64,000 nt of DNA, from assembly GCA_040756055.1 (NCBI GenBank), contig JBFLZR010000009.1, forward strand, positions 4,620 to 68,619, in the 5' to 3' direction. Position numbers and translations under genes: made by a program. This DNA comes from Candidatus Zixiibacteriota bacterium. Lineage in GTDB: Bacteria > Zixibacteria > MSB-5A5 > GN15 > FEB-12. The notes below the pieces were generated by a model. It worked only from the letters and a program-made list of their open reading frames with translations, had not been told where the DNA came from and searched no databases. Below are positions 53,561 to 63,003 of the stretch, in pieces; position 1 is the stretch's first letter; the number at the start of each line of letters is the position of its first letter.

Positions 53561-56398
53561 TTATTTTTTCTTTTTCAGGAGATTATCGAGGACGTTCTGA
53601 GCTTCGCCTTTCAAATTGTCCTGAAGATTTTTCCCGAGCGCGGAGTAATCAATGGCCACCGCCGGCTTGTCGAGCGTGCCTCCGAAGCCAATCGGAAGTT
53701 TGATTCTATCAACACTCTTGTCGGAAAGCAAGCCGGCTACGTTTCCAAGTAGTCCGCCCGACGAGACCAGCTTTTGTGACCATTCTTTCGACAGCAGAAT
53801 GGTGCCGGTGTAGTCTATATCTCCGTCAAATGAGTAGTAGCCATCCAGCTCAACCTCACCCATGCTTCCCAGCTGCGTTTTGAGCTTATCCACGCCAACC
53901 TTGCCATCCTTGACGATGACTTTGGTTGCCAGACTGCGCAGGGGTTGTTCCTTATCAAACGACTGCCCGGCCTTCGAAGCAAGGCTGTTTATGGCGGAGT
54001 AGACTTCACCCGAGGTGATCACTTTCCCCTGCTGCATGGAAGTATTGGAATTCATGGTGAGGGAATTCAGGAAATCCTCCGGCTCCCACCCTTCGGCGGC
54101 GTACTGACCATCGAGATTGATCTTGCCATAGAGAAAGCCGCCGAATTTGGTAAAGCGACTGACGAAATCATTGGCTTCAACATTGGTCGCCTGAAACTCG
54201 CCGGTATAACGCGGATTTTCAAAATCATTGAGGTCGATAGTCGTATTCCCCGCTACATCGCCGCTATAAACTTTACCGGTGGCATCATAGCACTCTATCT
54301 TGCGATCATAGATTTTTATTTTGCCCTGGAGCGACGTAAACTCCACCCGGCTGTAAATCAAGGTGTCAACCTCGAAAGTCCCCTGACCATCGATATCGGG
54401 CAGAATAATTGTCGACACTGAGTCCATTGAAGCCGTCGCCATGGTCTCACCGGATCCCGGAACGGCCTCAGGAAAGAGTTTGTCGGCGTCGAAGCGATGT
54501 GAGGTCAACTTGAACAAAAACAGCGGCTTGGTTACGTTACTGCGGTCGATAGTTTTCAGAGGCAACAGGTAAGGAAACGGGTTGATGAGCTTGCCCGAAA
54601 ATGAGGCGTCACTTGAAACAAACTGCGCCGTCATATTAACCACTGTTATTGTGTCGGGGGCAACTTTAAGATCGGCCTCGAAATGCCTGAGCGGTTCCGG
54701 AAGCAGCGAATCGGAATAGGATGCGTTTTTGATAGTTACAGTGCCGGAAGGCTGAAGTTTTTCGTAGTCAGCCAGGACACCGGCCAGTTTGAGGTTCAAG
54801 GCCAGATCCCCCTCCAGGTGGGGATTGCCTTTGGGGGGCAACAGCGAGTTAACGACATCGAGATTCAACCGGCCATCGAGAACTCCGTCTATAGTCGGGG
54901 TAATACCGGGGCGGGCCGTTGAGTCGGCCATCAAATACGGCACCAGTTTGTTGAGTCGTCCGGTAAAGCCCAGGCTTCCGGAACTCGTGCGAGCATCGAG
55001 TTTCTTGACGCTTGTCAGTTCCCGGTCAAAGTAGACATCGAGATTGAATGATTCGATCGGCTCGAGCATGAAACTCGAATTGTATTTTCCATCAACGACT
55101 TTCAGGTCGCCGGAGAAATTCATTTGGGTAAAGTCATTGGTCTTGCCTGACAGCTTGATATTGAACTCAGCGGCTCCGGCGATTTCGTGAGCGTCCTCCG
55201 CCGGAAGAAAAGGCTGCAAATATACGAGGTTGAAATTACCCGCGAGTTCCCCGTTAACAACCGGATCCTCAAAATTCTCAACGACCAGGTGGCCTTTCAG
55301 CGGTTTATCATCGAAATAGCCATCTTCGATGGTAAAGCGAAGGTTGTCATTTTTGAAGTCTATCAGCGCTTTGCTGAAGCGGAATTTGCCGGGGACCTCG
55401 CTATGGGACAGATTCATGGAGGTTATGATCGCGGTTCCGAAGTAAGTCAGCGTATCGGTATTTGCCGTATCGTATTCAACATCAAGATCGAGTGAGAAGT
55501 CGCCATCGACCTTGATATCTTTCGTCATTTCGAGTTGTTTCTCGGGCAGAAGGTTCAGCAGGTCGGCGACTTTGATTTTTTGAGATTTCAGGTTGACCTT
55601 GCTCTTAAGATCGCCCGCAGGATCCGACGCCGTGCCCTCGAGAGTAAACTTGAGAGCATTCAGCTCAAGTCCCGTCTCATCGAAGGTGAGCTGCTTCTGG
55701 TCAAGGTCGTAGGCGGCGTGGTAGTCCAGCTTGACGCTCAGTACGGGTAGTGGTTTCTCACCCGCTACCAGAAGCGAATCTATGGCAATAACGCCTGAAG
55801 ATTCATAGTAATTTTTTCTGGGTGCTTTTAGCGATGTTGAAAGATCGAGACCTCTGAGGTCGAAGGAACTGGCAGAGCTGTCATCGACATAGCTCAGGTA
55901 TCCCTCGTTGATTTCCAGTCTGTCGAACGTGACAGCCGCCGCGGCAGCCTTGGTTTCCGGCGTAGCCTTTTGAACCAGTTCGGGTGGCGCTTTTTTCTCC
56001 AGGCTTTCGAACGTATAATTATTGGAACCATCGGCTTCCTTGCGCATCGAAATCCGGGGGCGATTTACAACCAATTTGTCAATCCTGAAATCTCCGGAAA
56101 ATAGCGGCAGGATTCTCAGTTTAACATCCACATTGTCTGCCGTGAGAAACGAGCCATCTTCCATGTCCGGCGGATTGCTGATCGCCACATTGCCGAGCTT
56201 GACGCCGATACCGCCCCAGAATGACACCTGAGCATCGTCTATGGTAATATTGCGCCCGAGCTGCGCGCTGCCTTTTTCAATCGCGAATTCTTTCGCCTTT
56301 TCTATGGGGAAAAACAGCCATAAACCAACGATGGCCAGCAGGAGTAAAATGATAACAACGCCGGCGATCCAGCCCAGTATTCTCGTGAGTCTTTTCAT
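53561..56398 (-). CDS. AsmA-family protein
   Basis: N-terminal TM anchor, LGRNITI...DNVDVKLRILPL...IDKLVVNRPRI; long beta-taco-like body; C-terminal GGTLDKP. Confidence 0.85.
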   Translation of the reverse strand: MKRLTRILGWIAGVVIILLLLAIVGLWLFFPIEKAKEFAIEKGSAQLGRNITIDDAQVSFWGGIGVKLGNVAISNPPDMEDGSFLTADNVDVKLRILPLFSGDFRIDKLVVNRPRISMRKEADGSNNYTFESLEKKAPPELVQKATPETKAAAAAVTFDRLEINEGYLSYVDDSSASSFDLRGLDLSTSLKAPRKNYYESSGVIAIDSLLVAGEKPLPVLSVKLDYHAAYDLDQKQLTFDETGLELNALKFTLEGTASDPAGDLKSKVNLKSQKIKVADLLNLLPEKQLEMTKDIKVDGDFSLDLDVEYDTANTDTLTYFGTAIITSMNLSHSEVPGKFRFSKALIDFKNDNLRFTIEDGYFDDKPLKGHLVVENFEDPVVNGELAGNFNLVYLQPFLPAEDAHEIAGAAEFNIKLSGKTNDFTQMNFSGDLKVVDGKYNSSFMLEPIESFNLDVYFDRELTSVKKLDARTSSGSLGFTGRLNKLVPYLMADSTARPGITPTIDGVLDGRLNLDVVNSLLPPKGNPHLEGDLALNLKLAGVLADYEKLQPSGTVTIKNASYSDSLLPEPLRHFEADLKVAPDTITVVNMTAQFVSSDASFSGKLINPFPYLLPLKTIDRSNVTKPLFLFKLTSHRFDADKLFPEAVPGSGETMATASMDSVSTIILPDIDGQGTFEVDTLIYSRVEFTSLQGKIKIYDRKIECYDATGKVYSGDVAGNTTIDLNDFENPRYTGEFQATNVEANDFVSRFTKFGGFLYGKINLDGQYAAEGWEPEDFLNSLTMNSNTSMQQGKVITSGEVYSAINSLASKAGQSFDKEQPLRSLATKVIVKDGKVGVDKLKTQLGSMGEVELDGYYSFDGDIDYTGTILLSKEWSQKLVSSGGLLGNVAGLLSDKSVDRIKLPIGFGGTLDKPAVAIDYSALGKNLQDNLKGEAQNVLDNLLKKKK

Positions 56399-56522
56399 AT
56401 TCCTTTATATTCCTTCCGCTTACAACAGGCCCAAAATTCTAATAAGAAATCGGTCCGCTGGCAATTAAAATCGAAAGGGGGCTTTGGCCCCCTCTGGTCG
56501 TGTCTCAAGTCTACACGGGAAT

Positions 56523-57200
56523 CTATAGCGTCAGAGCATCACCCGGTTTCAAAATGACAACTTCCGCGCCCGATACTTTGTCGGCGAAGCGCTTGGGGTC
56601 CTCGGCGATAATATCCCAAGTATTATAGTGTATTGGGACGACTTTACCGGGTTGAAGGAATTCCACCGCCTTCACGGCGTCATCAATCCCCATGGTGAAG
56701 TTGTCACCGATCGGCAGGAAGGCGAGGTCGATGCGGTTCATCTCACCTATCAACTTCATATCGTAGAACAGGCCTGTATCCCCGGGATGATAGATGGTGG
56801 CGCCGCCGATGGTGACAAGGAAACCGCAGGCAGGGCCGGTATAGCGGGAGGCGTCAGGACCATATCCTCCACCGTGGTGGGCGATGGTCAGTTTCACTCT
56901 TCCGAAGTCAAACTTGTGTGAACCGCCGATGTGCATCGGGTGAATCTGGGCTCCCTGGCTCGAACACAGGTTGGCCAGTTCGAAGTTGGCGATGATAGTA
57001 GCATTGTTGCGTTTGGCAATGGCGATGGCATCCCCGACATGGTCGCCGTGACCGTGCGTCAGCAGGACATAATTCACGTCAACGTCGGCCGCTTTTGTCG
57101 CGGCTTTTGGATTGTCACTTAGAAACGGATCGATAATGAGCTTATGCTTGCCCTCGGTGATGGTCACACATGAATGACCCAGAAATCGTACTTGAGGCAT
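56523..57200 (-). CDS. UPF0173-like metal-dependent hydrolase (MBL fold)
   Basis: FLGHS, IIDPFL, LTHGHGDH, YHPGDT, LPIGDNFTM and VPIHYNT. Confidence 0.9.
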   Translation of the reverse strand: MPQVRFLGHSCVTITEGKHKLIIDPFLSDNPKAATKAADVDVNYVLLTHGHGDHVGDAIAIAKRNNATIIANFELANLCSSQGAQIHPMHIGGSHKFDFGRVKLTIAHHGGGYGPDASRYTGPACGFLVTIGGATIYHPGDTGLFYDMKLIGEMNRIDLAFLPIGDNFTMGIDDAVKAVEFLQPGKVVPIHYNTWDIIAEDPKRFADKVSGAEVVILKPGDALTL

Positions 57201-57344
57201 ATCAAACTCCTTGACTATTTGTTAGCAGATCGATGGTTTAGTAATATTGGGGCTGAAATTAGGCAGGTCAACGATATTTTGGTCCGTATCGGCTCAAATC
57301 AGTTGTTGGCAGTCATGTCTAAGTTATTCGGCGACAACGAGGAG

Positions 57345-58361
57345 CTACTTATTGATTGTCCGAAAGAGGCAGGTCGGGAAGGAAGCGTTGAGGTCGCCGG
57401 TGTGCGCGTATACCGCACCGCGGCAAGCGCCGCGACAGACTTTAAAATAGGGGCATTCGCGGCAGTGACCATCGATAGTCTCACGGGGATAACGGGCTAT
57501 CTCGGTCATCTTGGGATCAGTCAGGATGTCAGCCAGACTTTTCTGTCGGACATTGCCTACGATGAACCGGTCAAAAAGCAGGCTGGTGCACGGGTAAACA
57601 TCGCCCTTGGATGATATGTAGAATGCCTCCGAACCGGCTTTGCATTTGTGGAAATCGTAGGCTGGAGGTAGCGGTCCAAAGGCAACATCGGGCAAGACGC
57701 GGGGATTATCCAAAACGACAAGTTTTTCCATCAGCAGAGCGAGGTCTTCGAGCCGGTCGCCGAAAGACATTTTCCGGCTGATCTCGTCATCCGTCCCCCC
57801 TCCGTGCGGCACGAAACAGCAATATCGGATTGTCTTCACGCCGAGTTCCCTTGCCATATCGACATAGTCAAGCACGTCATCCATGCTGGCGCGGGAGATT
57901 ATCATGGCCAGATAGACGGGAAGTCCGGCATCGAGACTTCTCTTGATGCCATCGATAACCATGTGAAATTCTTTGGCGCTGGCGAGCCTGATATTGTGGT
58001 TTCTTTCGGGGGTGGAGCCATCGAGGCTGATCTGCAGCGAGCTCAGATGCAGTTTCTTGAGGTTTTCGACACGCTTCGCGGTGAGTGGTATGCCATTAGT
58101 CGTTATTCCCGATTTTATGCCTTGATCATAGGCGTACGCGATCAGGTCTTCCAGGTCTTTTCTGATGAAGGGTTCGCCACCCGTCCAACCGATAGTCTCG
58201 ACTTCTATCTGACTCAGGTAGTCTATAATGTGTCGGCATTCGTCGGTCGTAAGTTCGCCGTCGGATACTTTCACCGCCGAACTATAACAGTGCGGACAGG
58301 AAAGGTTGCAGCGGTCAGTTATACCCCATCCGACAGAGCGATATTTTTGTACTTCTGCCAT
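57345..58361 (-). CDS. Radical SAM/SPASM protein (PqqE/NirJ-like scaffold, no N-terminal extension)
   Basis: CNLSCPHC, WTGGEP and ISLDG; SPASM CKAG...YPC...CRECPYFKVCRGAC...C (7 Cys). Confidence 0.93.
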   Translation of the reverse strand: MAEVQKYRSVGWGITDRCNLSCPHCYSSAVKVSDGELTTDECRHIIDYLSQIEVETIGWTGGEPFIRKDLEDLIAYAYDQGIKSGITTNGIPLTAKRVENLKKLHLSSLQISLDGSTPERNHNIRLASAKEFHMVIDGIKRSLDAGLPVYLAMIISRASMDDVLDYVDMARELGVKTIRYCCFVPHGGGTDDEISRKMSFGDRLEDLALLMEKLVVLDNPRVLPDVAFGPLPPAYDFHKCKAGSEAFYISSKGDVYPCTSLLFDRFIVGNVRQKSLADILTDPKMTEIARYPRETIDGHCRECPYFKVCRGACRGAVYAHTGDLNASFPTCLFRTINK

Positions 58362-58395
58362 GGTTTTCCATTCTCAATGATGCAGTACACACAGC

Positions 58396-58431
58396 GGTGA
58401 ATGCGGCAGGAGAAATCCCACCGCATTCACC
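58396..58431. terminator. Stem-loop after precursor peptide B
   Basis: GGTGAATGCGG / CCGCATTCACC perfect 11-bp stem. Confidence 0.7.
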
Positions 58432-58456
58432 TCAAACGGTCTCGGACATCCGATCT

Positions 58457-58609
58457 TTAGTCGTCCGGCGGAAGCATAATTCCAATGATCGGATAGATAA
58501 CCGGCTTGCAGAGCGTTGGACAATATGTCCCGCACAGCAAGGCACAATCCGTTGGGCAGTTGGGGCCGTTGGGGCCTTTACCGCTTGACGGTCCGATGAT
58601 GAATATCAT
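58457..58609 (-). CDS. Putative RiPP precursor peptide B, 50 aa, (CX3)4C
   Basis: Hand-translated MIFIIGPSSGKGPNGPNCPTDCALLCGTYCPTLCKPVIYPIIGIMLPPDD*; RBS GAGGAGG 7 nt upstream; lies between two rSAM/SPASM genes; absent from the ORF track (<60 aa). Confidence 0.85.
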   Translation of the reverse strand: MIFIIGPSSGKGPNGPNCPTDCALLCGTYCPTLCKPVIYPIIGIMLPPDD

Positions 58610-58680
58610 TGCCTCTCCTCCTCATGTGTTTCACGCTGAAGGCACGACGCCGCCATTATTGATTTGAACAATTGATGGCG

Positions 58681-60006
58681 CTATGTAGCCTCCCGGCGTG
58701 TTACATAAAGGTGTCGTAGCTCAAGCAAATCCTGCAGGTTTTCACTGAAGAATTTGCACTTTCCTGACAGACTCTCTGTTTGTTCGCGGATATCGATAGC
58801 GCACCCTCCAGCGCAGACGGGGAGAATAGCGCATGATTTACAGCTGTTACTTTCCAACGGGTCGAGCGTCGTATATTGGAGCATATTCCGATGCTGGAAT
58901 TCATCCACCGGCCTGTAAAAAATGGAATCCACCGACTGATCTACCCTCGCAGACACATCCTGCCAGCATTTAAAGATGTAACCGCTTGGGGCTATTATAA
59001 AAGAACTGTCGGAGTCAGTCGGACATGAGGGCTCGGCAAGTAAATACGGAAAGTCAAACTTCAGACCGCTTCTTCCCGTTACATTTCGATAGATATTCAG
59101 GTGGTTTTTGAGCTCTGAATCACTCTGACGGCATCGACCGATTGCGTCAGCGCAGATCTCTGTTTTAACACGGCTCGGTGCAACGAGAAGGCGCACCCTG
59201 CCGAGTACATCAGCCTGCGCAAGTGAATCAAGAACGTCGTTCATACCCTCGACATCGCTTGCGGCGACATTTATTCTCACAATCGTGTCGAGAATTCCGG
59301 CGACCTGCGAGAGGTTGAAGACTATCCGGTCAAACGAACCGTTCACCTCAGACAATTTCCTTGTTTTATCGTGCGCTTCCCGCGGCCCATTCAAAGTGAC
59401 CTGAGCGGTGTGGACGCCCGCTTCATTGAGGCGCAGCGCCATGGTTTTATCCAAAAGAGCGCCGTTGGTGATGATCGTTGAAGCAAAAAGTTCGATTCCA
59501 TACCCGGCAGCTTTGTCGGCAAGATGTCTCTGGATTCGCTCGATGGTATCGATTTCGAGAAGCGGCTCACCACCGAACCAGGTAACATGTATCTTCTCGG
59601 CTTTCCTGATGGTCTTGTCCAGAAACGAGACCAAAAATTTCTCGACCGGTGGCCGCATCTTCATCTTGTGTTGTCGTCCGTAGCATAAATCGCAGGTTAG
59701 ATTGCAATCGAGGGTAGGAGCAATGGCGAGGGTAAGAAGGTCTTTTCCGAAGCGGCCACGATTATAATACATTTTCTGCTGCGCCAATTCATGGACATCA
59801 TCTTCAATAAGGAATCCGCCATAAACCAACTGCTGTCTGAGAGCGAGGTTATTCTCGGCAGATTCGCCCAGGGGATTCTTTAGAACGGCGGAGACCTGCG
59901 AATAGGAGTTCGGGTCAAGCTCAGCCATGGCACCCGTGACACTGTTAAAGAGGATCCGGTTGCCATTATCGAGATCGGCAAAAATGTTAAACTGGGACGC
60001 TTTCAC
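58681..60006 (-). CDS. Radical SAM/SPASM peptide maturase with N-terminal RRE-like extension
   Basis: About 85-aa N-terminal extension (SQFNIF...ILFNSVTGAMAEL), LAIAPTLDCNLTCDLC, WFGGEPLL; SPASM C...FKCW...CKSCAILPVCAGGC...C. Confidence 0.92.
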   Translation of the reverse strand: MKASQFNIFADLDNGNRILFNSVTGAMAELDPNSYSQVSAVLKNPLGESAENNLALRQQLVYGGFLIEDDVHELAQQKMYYNRGRFGKDLLTLAIAPTLDCNLTCDLCYGRQHKMKMRPPVEKFLVSFLDKTIRKAEKIHVTWFGGEPLLEIDTIERIQRHLADKAAGYGIELFASTIITNGALLDKTMALRLNEAGVHTAQVTLNGPREAHDKTRKLSEVNGSFDRIVFNLSQVAGILDTIVRINVAASDVEGMNDVLDSLAQADVLGRVRLLVAPSRVKTEICADAIGRCRQSDSELKNHLNIYRNVTGRSGLKFDFPYLLAEPSCPTDSDSSFIIAPSGYIFKCWQDVSARVDQSVDSIFYRPVDEFQHRNMLQYTTLDPLESNSCKSCAILPVCAGGCAIDIREQTESLSGKCKFFSENLQDLLELRHLYVTRREAT

Positions 60007-60101
60007 GAGACTTTTTGTTCCTGTGAGGGACTTGTCAAGAGAAGCCGAGGTGCTGCTTCTATCGCCGTCAAGTTAAGTTGTTCCAAATAGGATACTTAAC
60101 T

Positions 60102-60129
60102 AATATAGCTTTTTTGTCCCGACTGTCAA
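60102..60129 (-). promoter_or_regulatory. Sigma70-like promoter for the rSAM maturase
   Basis: Minus strand TTGACA-N16-TATATT. Confidence 0.6.
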
Positions 60130-60218
60130 TATTGAAGTTTAGAGCCGAATCATCGCGACCCTTCACGTCTAGCGATCCGGCGCTGTGTTACCGAATGTCC
60201 TACAGGATGACCAAAGTG

Positions 60219-60286
60219 AAACACGGTCGAGAAGTTACGACCGTGTTTTTGCCTGCGCGTAAAATCGAAATCGCTCGATTTTTTTT
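60219..60286. terminator. Two hairpins following precursor peptide A
   Basis: AAACACGGTCG/CGACCGTGTTT (60219-60248) and AAAATCGA/TCGATTTT (60261-60282). Confidence 0.65.
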
Positions 60287-60287
60287 G

Positions 60288-60383
60288 TCATTCGGGCGGC
60301 TGGATAACAAACAGCCTTATGCAATCGAACGGGCAGGGTTTGTTCGGTCCCTTACCGCTGATGGGCTCAATGATAAACAGCAT
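60288..60383 (-). CDS. Putative RiPP precursor peptide A, 31 aa
   Basis: Hand-translated MLFIIEPISGKGPNKPCPFDCIRLFVIQPPE*; RBS GAGGAGG 7 nt upstream; paralogous to peptide B. Confidence 0.82.
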   Translation of the reverse strand: MLFIIEPISGKGPNKPCPFDCIRLFVIQPPE

Positions 60384-60687
60384 TAGCCTTCCTCCTCAAT
60401 GCGTTAGGATATATTCTGTTAGCACGAGCGCATAATCTGTTGATCTGCAAAGTCGGTTACGTGCTGAACAGATTCTAATGATACTTTACATCACCAATAG
60501 AGTCCTAGAGTCATCTAATCTGTCCTTCTGTAGGGGGCCTGCAGGAAGAGGCAACGTACTATATGCTACCAACACACAGTCAAGCCGCTCTAATAAGTCA
60601 GTATTTAAATAAGTCTTCCTGGAGCTACATGTCAATATTGATATTCACGAGCGGTAATTTCAATTAAGTATCCTGAGGAGCCAACCG

Positions 60688-61773
60688 CTAAGCGATGATC
60701 CCACCGCCCAGAAGAACATCGCCGTCGTAGAAAACCACTGACTGGCCGGGGGTTATGGCGCGCTGCTTCCGGTCGAAGACGACTTTCACCTGGCGGTCCG
60801 ACAAGGGAATCAAAGTTGCCGGAGCGGCCTTGTGCTGATAACGAATTTTTACTTCGACGCGAAGTTCCTCTGCCGGTGGGGCAATGCTTACCCAGTTGAC
60901 ATTCGCTGCCGTCAATTCGCGTTCGTAAAGCCCACTATCATCGCCGACTAAGATGCGGTTACTATCGACGTCAATCTTCTGGACATACAGCGGGGTCGGG
61001 TAGGCAACCCCGAGCCCCCGGCGCTGGCCAATAGTGTAGAAAGGTGTCCCCTTGTGTTTGCCCAGCACGGTTCCGTCTTCATGAACAATATCTCCCGGGG
61101 CATGCTCAATACCTTCTTTGGCATCATACTCGGTCAAGAAGCGGTGATAGTCGTCGTCGGCAACAAAGCATATCTCGCGGGATTCGACTTTGTTGGCTGT
61201 GCGGAGGTTATACTTTGACGCAATCTCACGGACCTGGGATTTCAGCATTCCACCGAGCGGCATAAGCGTTTTGGACAGAGCCTCCTGACTGATTCCCCAC
61301 AGCACATATGACTGATCGCGTGATTCATCGACGCCTTTGCGAATCCGGTAGCGGCCGCTCTCACTTTGTTCGACGAAGGAGTAGTGGCCGGTGGCGATAA
61401 AGTCGCACCCTACCTGCTTTGCCTTGCGAAGAAACTCGTTCCATTTTACTTCGGTGTTACAACGCACGCACGGATTCGGAGTTCTGCCGGCCCGGTATTC
61501 ATTTACGAAATCCTTGATTACTTTTTCCCGGAACTGCTCGGACATATTCAGGACATAGAACGGGGCGCCAATTGAATCACAGACCATGCGGCAATCGGTA
61601 ATAGAATCGATGGTACAGCACCGACCGTCCTTGTAAATATCGCCGCCCACATCGACATAGTCCCAGAGCTTCATGTGGGCCCCAACGACATCGAAGCCCT
61701 GTTCCTTCAGAATCAGGGCCGCTACGGACGAATCCACTCCACCGGACATTGCCACCAGTACTTTTTCACTCAT
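60688..61773 (-). CDS. mnmA: tRNA-specific 2-thiouridylase
   Basis: AMSGGVDSS, TPNPCVRCN, ATGHY, DQSYVL and RAITPGQSVVFY. Confidence 0.96.
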   Translation of the reverse strand: MSEKVLVAMSGGVDSSVAALILKEQGFDVVGAHMKLWDYVDVGGDIYKDGRCCTIDSITDCRMVCDSIGAPFYVLNMSEQFREKVIKDFVNEYRAGRTPNPCVRCNTEVKWNEFLRKAKQVGCDFIATGHYSFVEQSESGRYRIRKGVDESRDQSYVLWGISQEALSKTLMPLGGMLKSQVREIASKYNLRTANKVESREICFVADDDYHRFLTEYDAKEGIEHAPGDIVHEDGTVLGKHKGTPFYTIGQRRGLGVAYPTPLYVQKIDVDSNRILVGDDSGLYERELTAANVNWVSIAPPAEELRVEVKIRYQHKAAPATLIPLSDRQVKVVFDRKQRAITPGQSVVFYDGDVLLGGGIIA

Positions 61774-61836
61774 GGTTCATAACCAAAGAAAAGGGTCGCT
61801 GAGCGACCCGTAAGATTCGCTCCCTGTTCATTGCGC

Positions 61837-63003
61837 CTATTGTTTGCTATAAACAGGAGACATTTCGCGCAGTTTGCCGATGACATCAGGAAGAACTCCG
61901 AGGACGTAGTCGATTTCATCGCGCGTCGTGGATCTGCCGATAGAGAAGCGGATGGCCCCCTGGGCCATGACACTTTCGATCCCCATGGCTCTCAACACAT
62001 GCGAGGGTTCGGTTGCTCCGGAGGTACAAGCGGAGCCGGAGGAACAGGCGATTCCCTTAAGGTCCAGCGCCAGAACGATCGACTCACCTTCCACGCCATT
62101 GAACGAAATATTGACCGTCTGAGGGACCCTGTTTTGCCTGGTGCCATTGAGCGCGATATCGGGAATAGTCGCGACCACTTTGTCGATGAAATAGTCGGCC
62201 AGATCCGACATCATTTTATAGTCCTGTTGCTGACGGGCGAGGGCTATTTCAAGGGCCTTCGCGAAACCGACCGCCCCCGCGACATTTTCGGTTCCGGGCC
62301 GACGCTTCCTCTCGTGTGAACCGCCGTAGAACAGCGGTAACACCTTAATGCCGGCGCGAATATAGAGGGCACCGATTCCCTTGGGCCCGTAAATCTTGTG
62401 GGCGGTAATCGAAGCCATGTCTACGTCCATCTGACGAACATCCACCGGGATTTTGCCTGTCGACTGAACAGCATCGGTATGAAAGAGGCTCCCTTTTTCG
62501 TGGGCAACTTCAGCCATTGGCCGGATATCCTGAATAGTACCGGTTTCGTTGTTGGCGTGCATTACCGAAACGATCGATGTTCTGTCCTTGACGATTTGTC
62601 GTAGTTGGTCCGGTGAGGAGAAGCCTTCGCGGTCCACCGGCAAAAAGTCAAGCTTGAGGTTGTGCCGGTGAGCGAGATATTCGGCCGGTTCGAGCACGGC
62701 GTGATGCTCGGCGGCGCCGACAATGATGTGGTCTTTTTCTTTAATATTTTTAAATGCCGTCCCGAGAATGGCAATATTGTCCGATTCAGTGCCTCCCGAC
62801 GTGAAATAGAGTTCAGTCGGATCGCAGTTTATGACCGCGGCGATTTGTTCGCGGGCGTTTTCCAGCGCCACCTTGGCTTCCCGTCCGAATGAGTGCACGG
62901 AACTGGCGTTACCAAACTTTGCACTCAGATATGGAAGCATTGCTTCGACCACGAGCGGGTCTACGGGGGTGGTGGCATTGTGATCAAGATAAACGGTCTT
63001 CAT
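61837..63003 (-). CDS. iscS: Cysteine desulfurase (IscS/NifS family)
   Basis: YLDHNATTP, FTSGGTESDN, HTDAVQ, AHKIYGPKG and SSGSACTSG. Confidence 0.93.
   Translation of the reverse strand: MKTVYLDHNATTPVDPLVVEAMLPYLSAKFGNASSVHSFGREAKVALENAREQIAAVINCDPTELYFTSGGTESDNIAILGTAFKNIKEKDHIIVGAAEHHAVLEPAEYLAHRHNLKLDFLPVDREGFSSPDQLRQIVKDRTSIVSVMHANNETGTIQDIRPMAEVAHEKGSLFHTDAVQSTGKIPVDVRQMDVDMASITAHKIYGPKGIGALYIRAGIKVLPLFYGGSHERKRRPGTENVAGAVGFAKALEIALARQQQDYKMMSDLADYFIDKVVATIPDIALNGTRQNRVPQTVNISFNGVEGESIVLALDLKGIACSSGSACTSGATEPSHVLRAMGIESVMAQGAIRFSIGRSTTRDEIDYVLGVLPDVIGKLREMSPVYSKQ

Follow-up and report, generated by a model that had tools for sequence, protein, structure and literature searches.

Organization of the locus

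The window is the whole 64,000-nucleotide stretch analysed here. On its minus strand it carries, in this order, mnmA (61773..60688), precursor A, rSAM1, precursor B, rSAM2 and the gene of an MBL-fold hydrolase. The two enzymes and the two precursor peptides are encoded as follows.

60288..60383, minus strand: precursor A open reading frame, MLFIIEPISGKGPNKPCPFDCIRLFVIQPPE; 31 amino acids, ATG start, TGA stop
60391..60397, minus strand: Shine–Dalgarno sequence GAGGAGG of A, exactly 7 nt 5' of the ATG
58681..60006, minus strand: rSAM1, 441 amino acids; RRE-like N-terminal domain, radical SAM core and SPASM domain
58457..58609, minus strand: precursor B, 50 amino acids, five cysteines
57345..58361, minus strand: rSAM2, 338 amino acids; radical SAM/SPASM protein without an N-terminal extension

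Precursor A lies 281 nt upstream of rSAM1 on the same strand. Its ATG is the sole possible start codon, since an in-frame TGA occurs four codons upstream. B and all the related peptide genes examined share the 7 nt spacing between the Shine–Dalgarno sequence and the ATG. The leader of A comprises approximately residues 1–14 and the core begins at about Lys15; the peptide contains two cysteines (CPFDC) and terminates in PPE. Taken together with the neighbouring genes, A looks like a genuine second precursor-peptide gene of a two-enzyme radical-SAM peptide system. An exact look-up found neither A nor B on record, a homology search with B returned no candidate protein, and A, B and seven relatives gave no match to the NCBIfam and Pfam HMMs at E ≤ 0.1–1 (the SCIFF, Clo7bot peptide and CefA families included). 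A degenerate leader pattern gave 0 matches in the JGI metagenomes, and none of the RNA runs searched for the A segment contained it. An antisense open reading frame of 102 amino acids (60078..60386, plus strand) was rejected as a gene, having no Pfam or family match, as were two other small open reading frames in the A cassette, which have no Pfam match.

The best NCBIfam match of rSAM1 was TIGR04463 (E = 8e-70, 235.8 bits against a cut-off of 525), followed by the Clo7bot maturase TIGR04334 (E = 1e-66, 225 bits against a cut-off of 600). The enzyme is also near CefB, FlmE/OhkG and PapB, and falls under every NCBIfam cut-off. Its best solved relative by sequence is the thioether synthase CteB (5wgg, E = 6e-11; identity about 19–20%). 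The AlphaFold model of rSAM1 has a mean pLDDT of 62 and contains a confident N-terminal domain of three strands and three helices (residues 7–85, pLDDT ~80). With the full-length model, Foldseek ranked CteB, SuiB and TigE at the top. The predicted β3-α3 arrangement of the N-terminal domain supports an RRE topology, and thus an RRE-type domain. rSAM2 resembles AhbD, NirJ, MftC, StsB, SkfB and PqqE.

Orthologues of rSAM1 were present in 23 of 61 relatives, and paralogues of ~30% identity occur in many of them; the JGI metagenomes contained only relatives of ≤28% identity. The combination of rSAM1, peptide and rSAM2 was a conserved unit in all 16 loci examined, the rSAM2 orthologue coming after that of rSAM1, and no protease or exporter was found in the conserved unit of these 16 loci. 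The MBL-fold hydrolase, mnmA, NifS and AsmA are not counted as components of the system, since their synteny is limited to the genus.

Relation of A to B and to a third precursor

Precursors A and B share 17 of 25 identical residues over the leader and the first cysteine unit (BLASTP, E = 2e-9 in a single comparison), and at the DNA level the ribosome-binding-site block is also in common. B contains C18-P-T-D21 and has a PPDD terminus. The leader MLFIIEPxSGKGPN is common to A, B, the B peptide of the sister species G002 and the peptide of L113 (contig SPBD01000328 of GCA_004525835.1, a close relative of G002), and the sequences diverge after it. The peptides thus have a bipartite organization in which the paralogues keep the leader, while the core varies and bears the cysteines. 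The initial annotation, made from the window alone, had described A as sharing the leader of B, with one CPxDC unit, a PP-acidic end and three cysteines fewer than B, and this description was borne out. Homology and the rSAM1 model likewise agree with A being a paralogue of B that carries the leader and adjoins a radical SAM/SPASM enzyme with an RRE-like domain.

A third precursor, MIFLIDPTMVGKKCPSYEPPVCSPKYIPLYGIDPILPPE, is encoded in the same genome outside the window (G000:C6, approximately 113967–114086; L026:5967–6086, plus strand). Its leader is a more distant relative of the A and B leader, and it is preceded by AAGGAGG at the same 7 nt spacing. Downstream of it is a paralogous rSAM/SPASM pair (447 and 359 amino acids; 32% identity to rSAM1). 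The open reading frame of 585 amino acids that follows this pair encodes a putative ABC-type transporter.

A-type peptides within the genus and selection on A

In G002, in which rSAM1 is 62% identical, the locus contains B only and the mnmA–rSAM1 spacer is 178 nt. G003 has one different two-cysteine peptide and no A, and G004 also lacks A. A-type peptides were found in two other genomes of the genus. In G001 the A-type peptide MKFIVPPTKGKNKPCPTFCPRLIYLIKSPVLP is encoded directly before rSAM2, within an array (L023:7400–9030) that lies between rSAM1 and rSAM2 and contains two- and three-cysteine peptides together with a B-like five-cysteine peptide. The first three cassettes of this array are tandem repeats of ~250 nt with conserved spacers. 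A further B-like cassette of G001 (TLFIVPPVFSGKKGPCPDKVWPCGILCATFCSDNCKVVFVIIPP...) has ACG at the start-codon position and is thus either a pseudogene or the user of a non-canonical start.

On the L113 contig (3,077 nt, cut at the 5' end of rSAM1) the A-type peptide VLFIIEPISGKGPNNPCPTDCKRLIYPIKPYPMLSPEE follows immediately after rSAM1. In a DNA alignment (L113:1359–1620), L113 corresponds to G002 with an insertion of 105 nt precisely where the leader and core of B meet; this segment is made up of an A-type core with a stop codon and a further 30 nt. The B core GPNCPSDCSLLCGTLCATLCKPVIYPIIGIMLPIE is complete and stays in frame, behind two stop codons, with only a TTG ahead of it and no leader, ATG or ribosome-binding site. 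The A-type peptide is thus apparently the sole intact precursor of the L113 contig.

The initial annotation had held that an absence of A from homologous loci would tell against its proposals. The survey gave a divided picture: A is absent from G002, from G003 and from a close strain (see below), and A-type peptides are present in L113 and G001. Within the genus the A-type core reads PCPxxCxRL[IF][YV]xI[KQ]xP, with PCPxxCxRL kept across three species. In a phmmer search of the window's genome, covering all 92,593 stop-to-stop frames, A was the top match for both the L113 peptide (E = 1.4e-10) and G001 P4 (E = 1.2e-3). Proportions of synonymous (pS) and non-synonymous (pN) differences were as follows.

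A versus L113, codons 2–24: pS 0.58 (9 of 15.5 synonymous sites), pN 0.075 (4 of 53.5 non-synonymous sites)
B versus G002 B: pS 0.61, pN 0.10
A versus its own B, leader: pS saturated (0.91), pN 0.16

The ratio pN/pS of ~0.13 between A and L113 indicates that A is under purifying selection. On these values the A lineage would be approximately as old as the species split and would have been under purifying selection during most of that span, which argues against a recent, decaying duplicate.

The two-cysteine peptide family in related bacteria

Short peptide genes adjoin or separate the orthologues of rSAM1 and rSAM2 in related bacteria, with a strong ribosome-binding site at constant spacing throughout. 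The two-cysteine members are 27–33 amino acids long (for example MKFIETPSTAIAKPCPCYKMLFLILPPLKD, MKLIQKPQEQAQIPCPCYKKLFLILPPW, MRFIEKRQDNKLNACPYYCKKMFYILPPW and MRYIVKPQEPAPKSCPWYCTRFFPILPPYVDEF) and have the consensus MKFIxxP..KPCPCYKRLFLILPPW, or CPxxC. Among 160 genomes of the order, a family profile constructed from 15 short peptides, with A among them, matched 23, from 14 of 79 genera, with 1–3 copies each; in the window's genome it matched A only. The number of peptides per locus ranges from 1 to 5 while the enzyme pair is constant. On this distribution, the two-cysteine peptide of 27–33 amino acids would be the common form and the five-cysteine B an unusual, elaborated one. The family is absent as a described family from NCBIfam and Pfam, and a literature search found no paper on it.

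A profile built from other genera only placed A first among the 92,593 genomic frames (E = 0.0018) when composition correction was off; with the HMMER composition correction A had E = 0.59 and rank 4. B never scored with this profile. In a residue-for-residue alignment, KPCP-FD-C-IRLFVIQPP of A pairs with KPCP-C-YKRLFLILPP of the family, and the tail VIQPPE of A deviates from the ILPPW consensus. The family-wide pattern is CP(x0–2)C, a basic residue, a hydrophobic stretch and I-x-P-P. Like the other members, A adjoins orthologue-type rSAM1 and rSAM2 genes and has a strong ribosome-binding site at the fixed spacing.

These comparisons change two points of the initial annotation. It had taken A for a minimal paralogue lacking the additional cysteines of B; the two-cysteine form is widespread beside orthologous enzymes, and it is B that is elaborated. 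It had also proposed CPxDC as the minimal modification motif. The Asp is specific to A, B, G002 B and L113, which belong to the clade of the window; other family members have CPC, CPWYC, CPTFC, CPTKC or CPYYC as their motif, and their +3 position is occupied by Tyr, Phe, Lys, Leu or Arg.

Some related loci depart from this arrangement. A different type of two-cysteine peptide, in which an IIC motif recurs (MRLITLPGVTFARKPHYIICGVKGPLYIICGHY and MKLIRLPGIDPIEKPHYIICSINGPYKIICSKY are examples), lies upstream of rSAM1 orthologues in L033, L039, L040 and L015, and peptides upstream of rSAM1 were also seen in G050. The members at L029:7573–7701 and L030:6892–7017 carry a Pro/Glu-rich extension past the ILPP tail, with the second cysteine moved to the end (...GCRFFPILPPEPPPPPEPPPIPCPALN), which suggests that the ILPP element can be internal.

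The 506 nt cassette and strain variation

Precursor A is flanked by an exact direct repeat of 12 nt.

60124..60135: direct repeat copy 1, TGTCAATATTGA; holds the –35 hexamer TTGACA of the minus-strand rSAM1 promoter
60630..60641: direct repeat copy 2, TGTCAATATTGA; upstream of A, with a second TTGACA
60136..60641, minus strand: A cassette of 506 nt (one repeat copy counted in), consisting of a 246 nt 5' region, the A open reading frame and a 3' region with two hairpins

The two copies are spaced 506 nt apart, and by chance ~0.02 such repeats would be expected in 851 nt. Both the cassette-plus and the cassette-minus state were present among sediment metagenome contigs from public assemblies. 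A was present in runs X2 and X5 with 0–1 differences. A contig of 1,101 nt from run X1 has 96.6% identity over 59703–60112 and ~93% over 60694–61308, passes from 60112 to 60694 via 76 other bases and lacks A; the net length difference is 505 nt. The mnmA–rSAM1 spacer of the window is 681 nt, which becomes 175 nt when 506 nt are subtracted, against the 178 nt of G002. The repeat spacing, the length difference in X1 and the spacer lengths fit one another, and from them we infer that A sits on a 506 nt unit bounded by TGTCAATATTGA. This cassette is absent from a strain of ~93–97% identity (the flanking pieces in run X1) and from G002. A itself is missing from the close strain, G002, G003 and G004 and would thus be dispensable.

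In a blastn search of the cassette against the loci of the genus, only the leader and the rSAM1 promoter/5'UTR were matched, and no source for the cassette was found. The possibility that the region 5' of A is a relic of the 3' end of rSAM1 was dropped, only the ribosome-binding-site block (ACRCAT-GAGGAGG) being alike, which is too short. The cassette ends (60089–60142 and 60625–60674) also carry imperfect inverted copies of AGGATACTTAA ... TCAATATTGA, so that part of the start region of the rSAM1 promoter recurs, inverted, upstream of A.

A-type genes at three different positions (in the window's genome, G001 and L113) would favour mobility of the cassette. A tentative extension, which we regard as possible and yet clearly short of an even chance, is that precursor genes are mobile cassettes through which a single, fixed enzyme pair comes to make different products in different strains. 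This joint reading has two modes, each held no more firmly than the whole. In one, the entire 506 nt unit of A (regulatory flank, leader, core and hairpins) might have been inserted at the –35 box of the operon with a 12 nt duplication, leaving a TTGACA to both A and the operon. In the other, speculative to a like degree, a core-only module might have been inserted at the leader/core junction of B in L113, converting a B-type into an A-type product.

Promoters and RNA elements

Candidate promoters and hairpins around A and within the rSAM1–B–rSAM2 operon are listed below.

60102..60129, minus strand: predicted rSAM1–B–rSAM2 promoter, TTGACA-16-TATATT; 11/12 matches, near consensus, the best in the region
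60634..60663, minus strand: weak candidate A promoter, TTGAAA-18-AATATT; 9/12 matches
60261..60282, minus strand: AU-rich hairpin of 9 bp directly 3' of the A stop codon, with a flanking A-run and U-run
60219..60248, minus strand: perfect hairpin of 11 bp downstream of A; its U-tract is better on the plus strand
58396..58431, minus strand: GC-rich hairpin of 16 bp between B and rSAM2; z = –4.2

The predicted rSAM1 promoter is located downstream of A, and both of its hexamers and the start region are conserved in G002. The enzymes and B would therefore keep their own promoter, from which A would not be co-transcribed with them. Candidates for the transcription of A are the duplicated TTGACA, the weak TTGAAA-18-AATATT and read-through from mnmA. 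The two hairpins 3' of A gave z = –2.8, and the 11 bp hairpin is a possible terminator, attenuator or RNA-stabilizing element. Both G002 and L113 retain the hairpin between B and rSAM2, one pair being changed in a compensatory manner (C–G in G002 and L113, U–A in the window); this hairpin is likely to be an attenuator or mRNA-stabilizing element that sets the precursor-to-enzyme ratio. A search of Rfam at E ≤ 1 over 56000–62000 returned nothing. Folding of the 307 nt region 5' of A was no better than that of shuffled sequences (z = –0.08), so no riboswitch-like element is proposed.

Proposed role of A and alternative explanations

We consider A to be a functional accessory substrate of the same enzyme pair, with the canonical core type of the family, and assign this reading a probability of roughly 0.7. 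A would be a strain-variable substrate; the repeat duplicates the –35 box of the operon, so that A would form a separate transcription unit upstream of the intact rSAM1–B–rSAM2 promoter. A is probably translated, and the N-terminal RRE-like domain of rSAM1 would then bind the leader MLFIIEPISGKGPN that is common to A and B. The core KPCPFDCIRLFVIQPPE would represent the canonical two-cysteine core type. Judging from distant homology, rSAM1 may modify both cysteines, most likely with thioether cross-links, and a specific prediction is a Cys17–Asp20 ranthionine, by comparison with the C-X-X-D/Q motifs of the CrpC system. rSAM2 would then install a second modification, of whatever nature.

Among the alternatives, the one that we take most seriously, while still judging it unlikely, is that A no longer functions, being a relic copy from a cassette rearrangement, recently stranded and still intact by chance. 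The absence of A from the close strain and the sister species would fit such a copy, as would its separation from the enzymes by their own promoter, and relics are known in the family (the leaderless B core in L113 and the ACG cassette in G001). Against this, the open reading frame, start codon and ribosome-binding site of A are all intact and its core is conserved across three species. The low pN/pS against L113, at a synonymous divergence as large as that of the species split, moreover leaves little time for neutral drift. A somewhat more improbable role is that of a leader decoy or regulator which titrates the RRE of rSAM1 and sets the extent of B processing, as the initial annotation had also suggested. 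The leader is indeed common to A and B, and A is apparently a separate transcription unit upstream of the operon promoter, which makes independent regulation possible. For a pure decoy the leader would suffice, yet conservation reaches into the core PCPxxCxRL (the core alone has little statistical power) and A-type or other two-cysteine peptides are the sole precursor in many loci, the A-type peptide being the only intact one in L113; both observations point to a substrate. The decoy proposal found no support.

We give little credence to the idea that the second rSAM pair of the genome, the paralogous one at G000:C6, acts on A in place of the adjacent enzymes. The C6 precursor has a similar start and end (MIFLIDP...ILPPE) and, as with A, is encoded upstream of an rSAM1 paralogue; the leader of A is far closer to the leaders of B, G002 and L113, which lie beside rSAM1 orthologues, and the A-type peptides of L113 and G001 are within loci of the same type as that in the window. 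That A is a chance intergenic open reading frame, as its 31 codons and its absence from every gene caller and protein database could suggest, is in effect refuted by the comparisons made: homology to B (E = 2e-9), purifying selection, its genome-wide rank as the top match of A-type peptides, a ribosome-binding-site spacing identical to that of all family members, and an antisense frame of 102 amino acids with no family match.

A second precursor in a RiPP cluster is by itself ordinary; the interest of the locus is carried by the reversal of archetype and by the cassette structure. With the short two-cysteine peptide as archetype and the five-cysteine B as derivative, the reading of the locus changes, and A becomes the simplest natural substrate for finding what both radical SAM enzymes do, with two cysteines and a Cys17–Asp20 prediction. 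A and B together are a natural pair for a study of substrate tolerance. Besides Zixibacteria, several other phyla contain the uncharacterized cassette of rSAM1, peptide and rSAM2, to judge from record titles. The evolution of RiPP precursor repertoires can be viewed here through both the presence/absence polymorphism and the insertion at a leader–core junction.

Comparison with known systems

The CrpA/CrpB–CrpC system of Methanococcus voltae resembles the rSAM1 system in that its enzyme combines RRE, radical SAM and SPASM domains (PMC13692751). CrpC (TIGR04463) installs ranthionine at C-X-X-Q/D motifs, and its two substrates share an N-terminal recognition region and have divergent, cysteine-bearing C-terminal parts, as A and B do (PMC13692751). 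The motifs of CrpA that receive ranthionine have counterparts in C17-P-F-D20 of A and C18-P-T-D21 of B (PMC13692751). In contrast, the Crp substrates are large proteins with 2–10 repeats, whereas the peptides here have 27–50 amino acids, and the Crp system is without the second rSAM enzyme that is present here (PMC13692751). rSAM1 is not a member of TIGR04463, scoring 236 bits against the cut-off of 525, and in the wider Zixibacteria family the +3 position is not fixed as Asp. Thuricin CD likewise combines two precursor peptides and two rSAM enzymes in one locus, but is a two-component Bacillus sactibiotic of unrelated sequence (PMC12093266). In the present system the peptide number varies around a constant enzyme pair.

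The ranthipeptides and sactipeptides (CteA/CteB, thermocellin; PapA/PapB, freyrasin) resemble A in having a short leader–core peptide, cysteine donors and an RRE–SPASM maturase. CteB is the best sequence and structural match of rSAM1, yet with an identity of only ~19–20%. Unlike these peptides, A matches no known precursor family, and the cores of the present family bear only two cysteines ahead of a hydrophobic I-L-P-P tail. The system described here always includes a second rSAM, and the cassette has no conserved protease or exporter. The Clo7bot system (TIGR04334) also has several tandem paralogous precursors, which are Cys-rich, beside one rSAM/SPASM maturase, but it is clostridial, with a single rSAM and unrelated peptides, and rSAM1 reaches 225 bits against its cut-off of 600. 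Prochlorosins are produced from multi-precursor RiPP loci in which a conserved leader precedes hypervariable cores that are processed by a lanthipeptide synthetase. Loci of this type share with the present one a single enzyme set, a conserved leader and strain-variable cores; they differ in the class of the enzyme, and in the locus described here the variation takes the form of cassette-level insertion at a promoter –35 box and at a leader–core junction.
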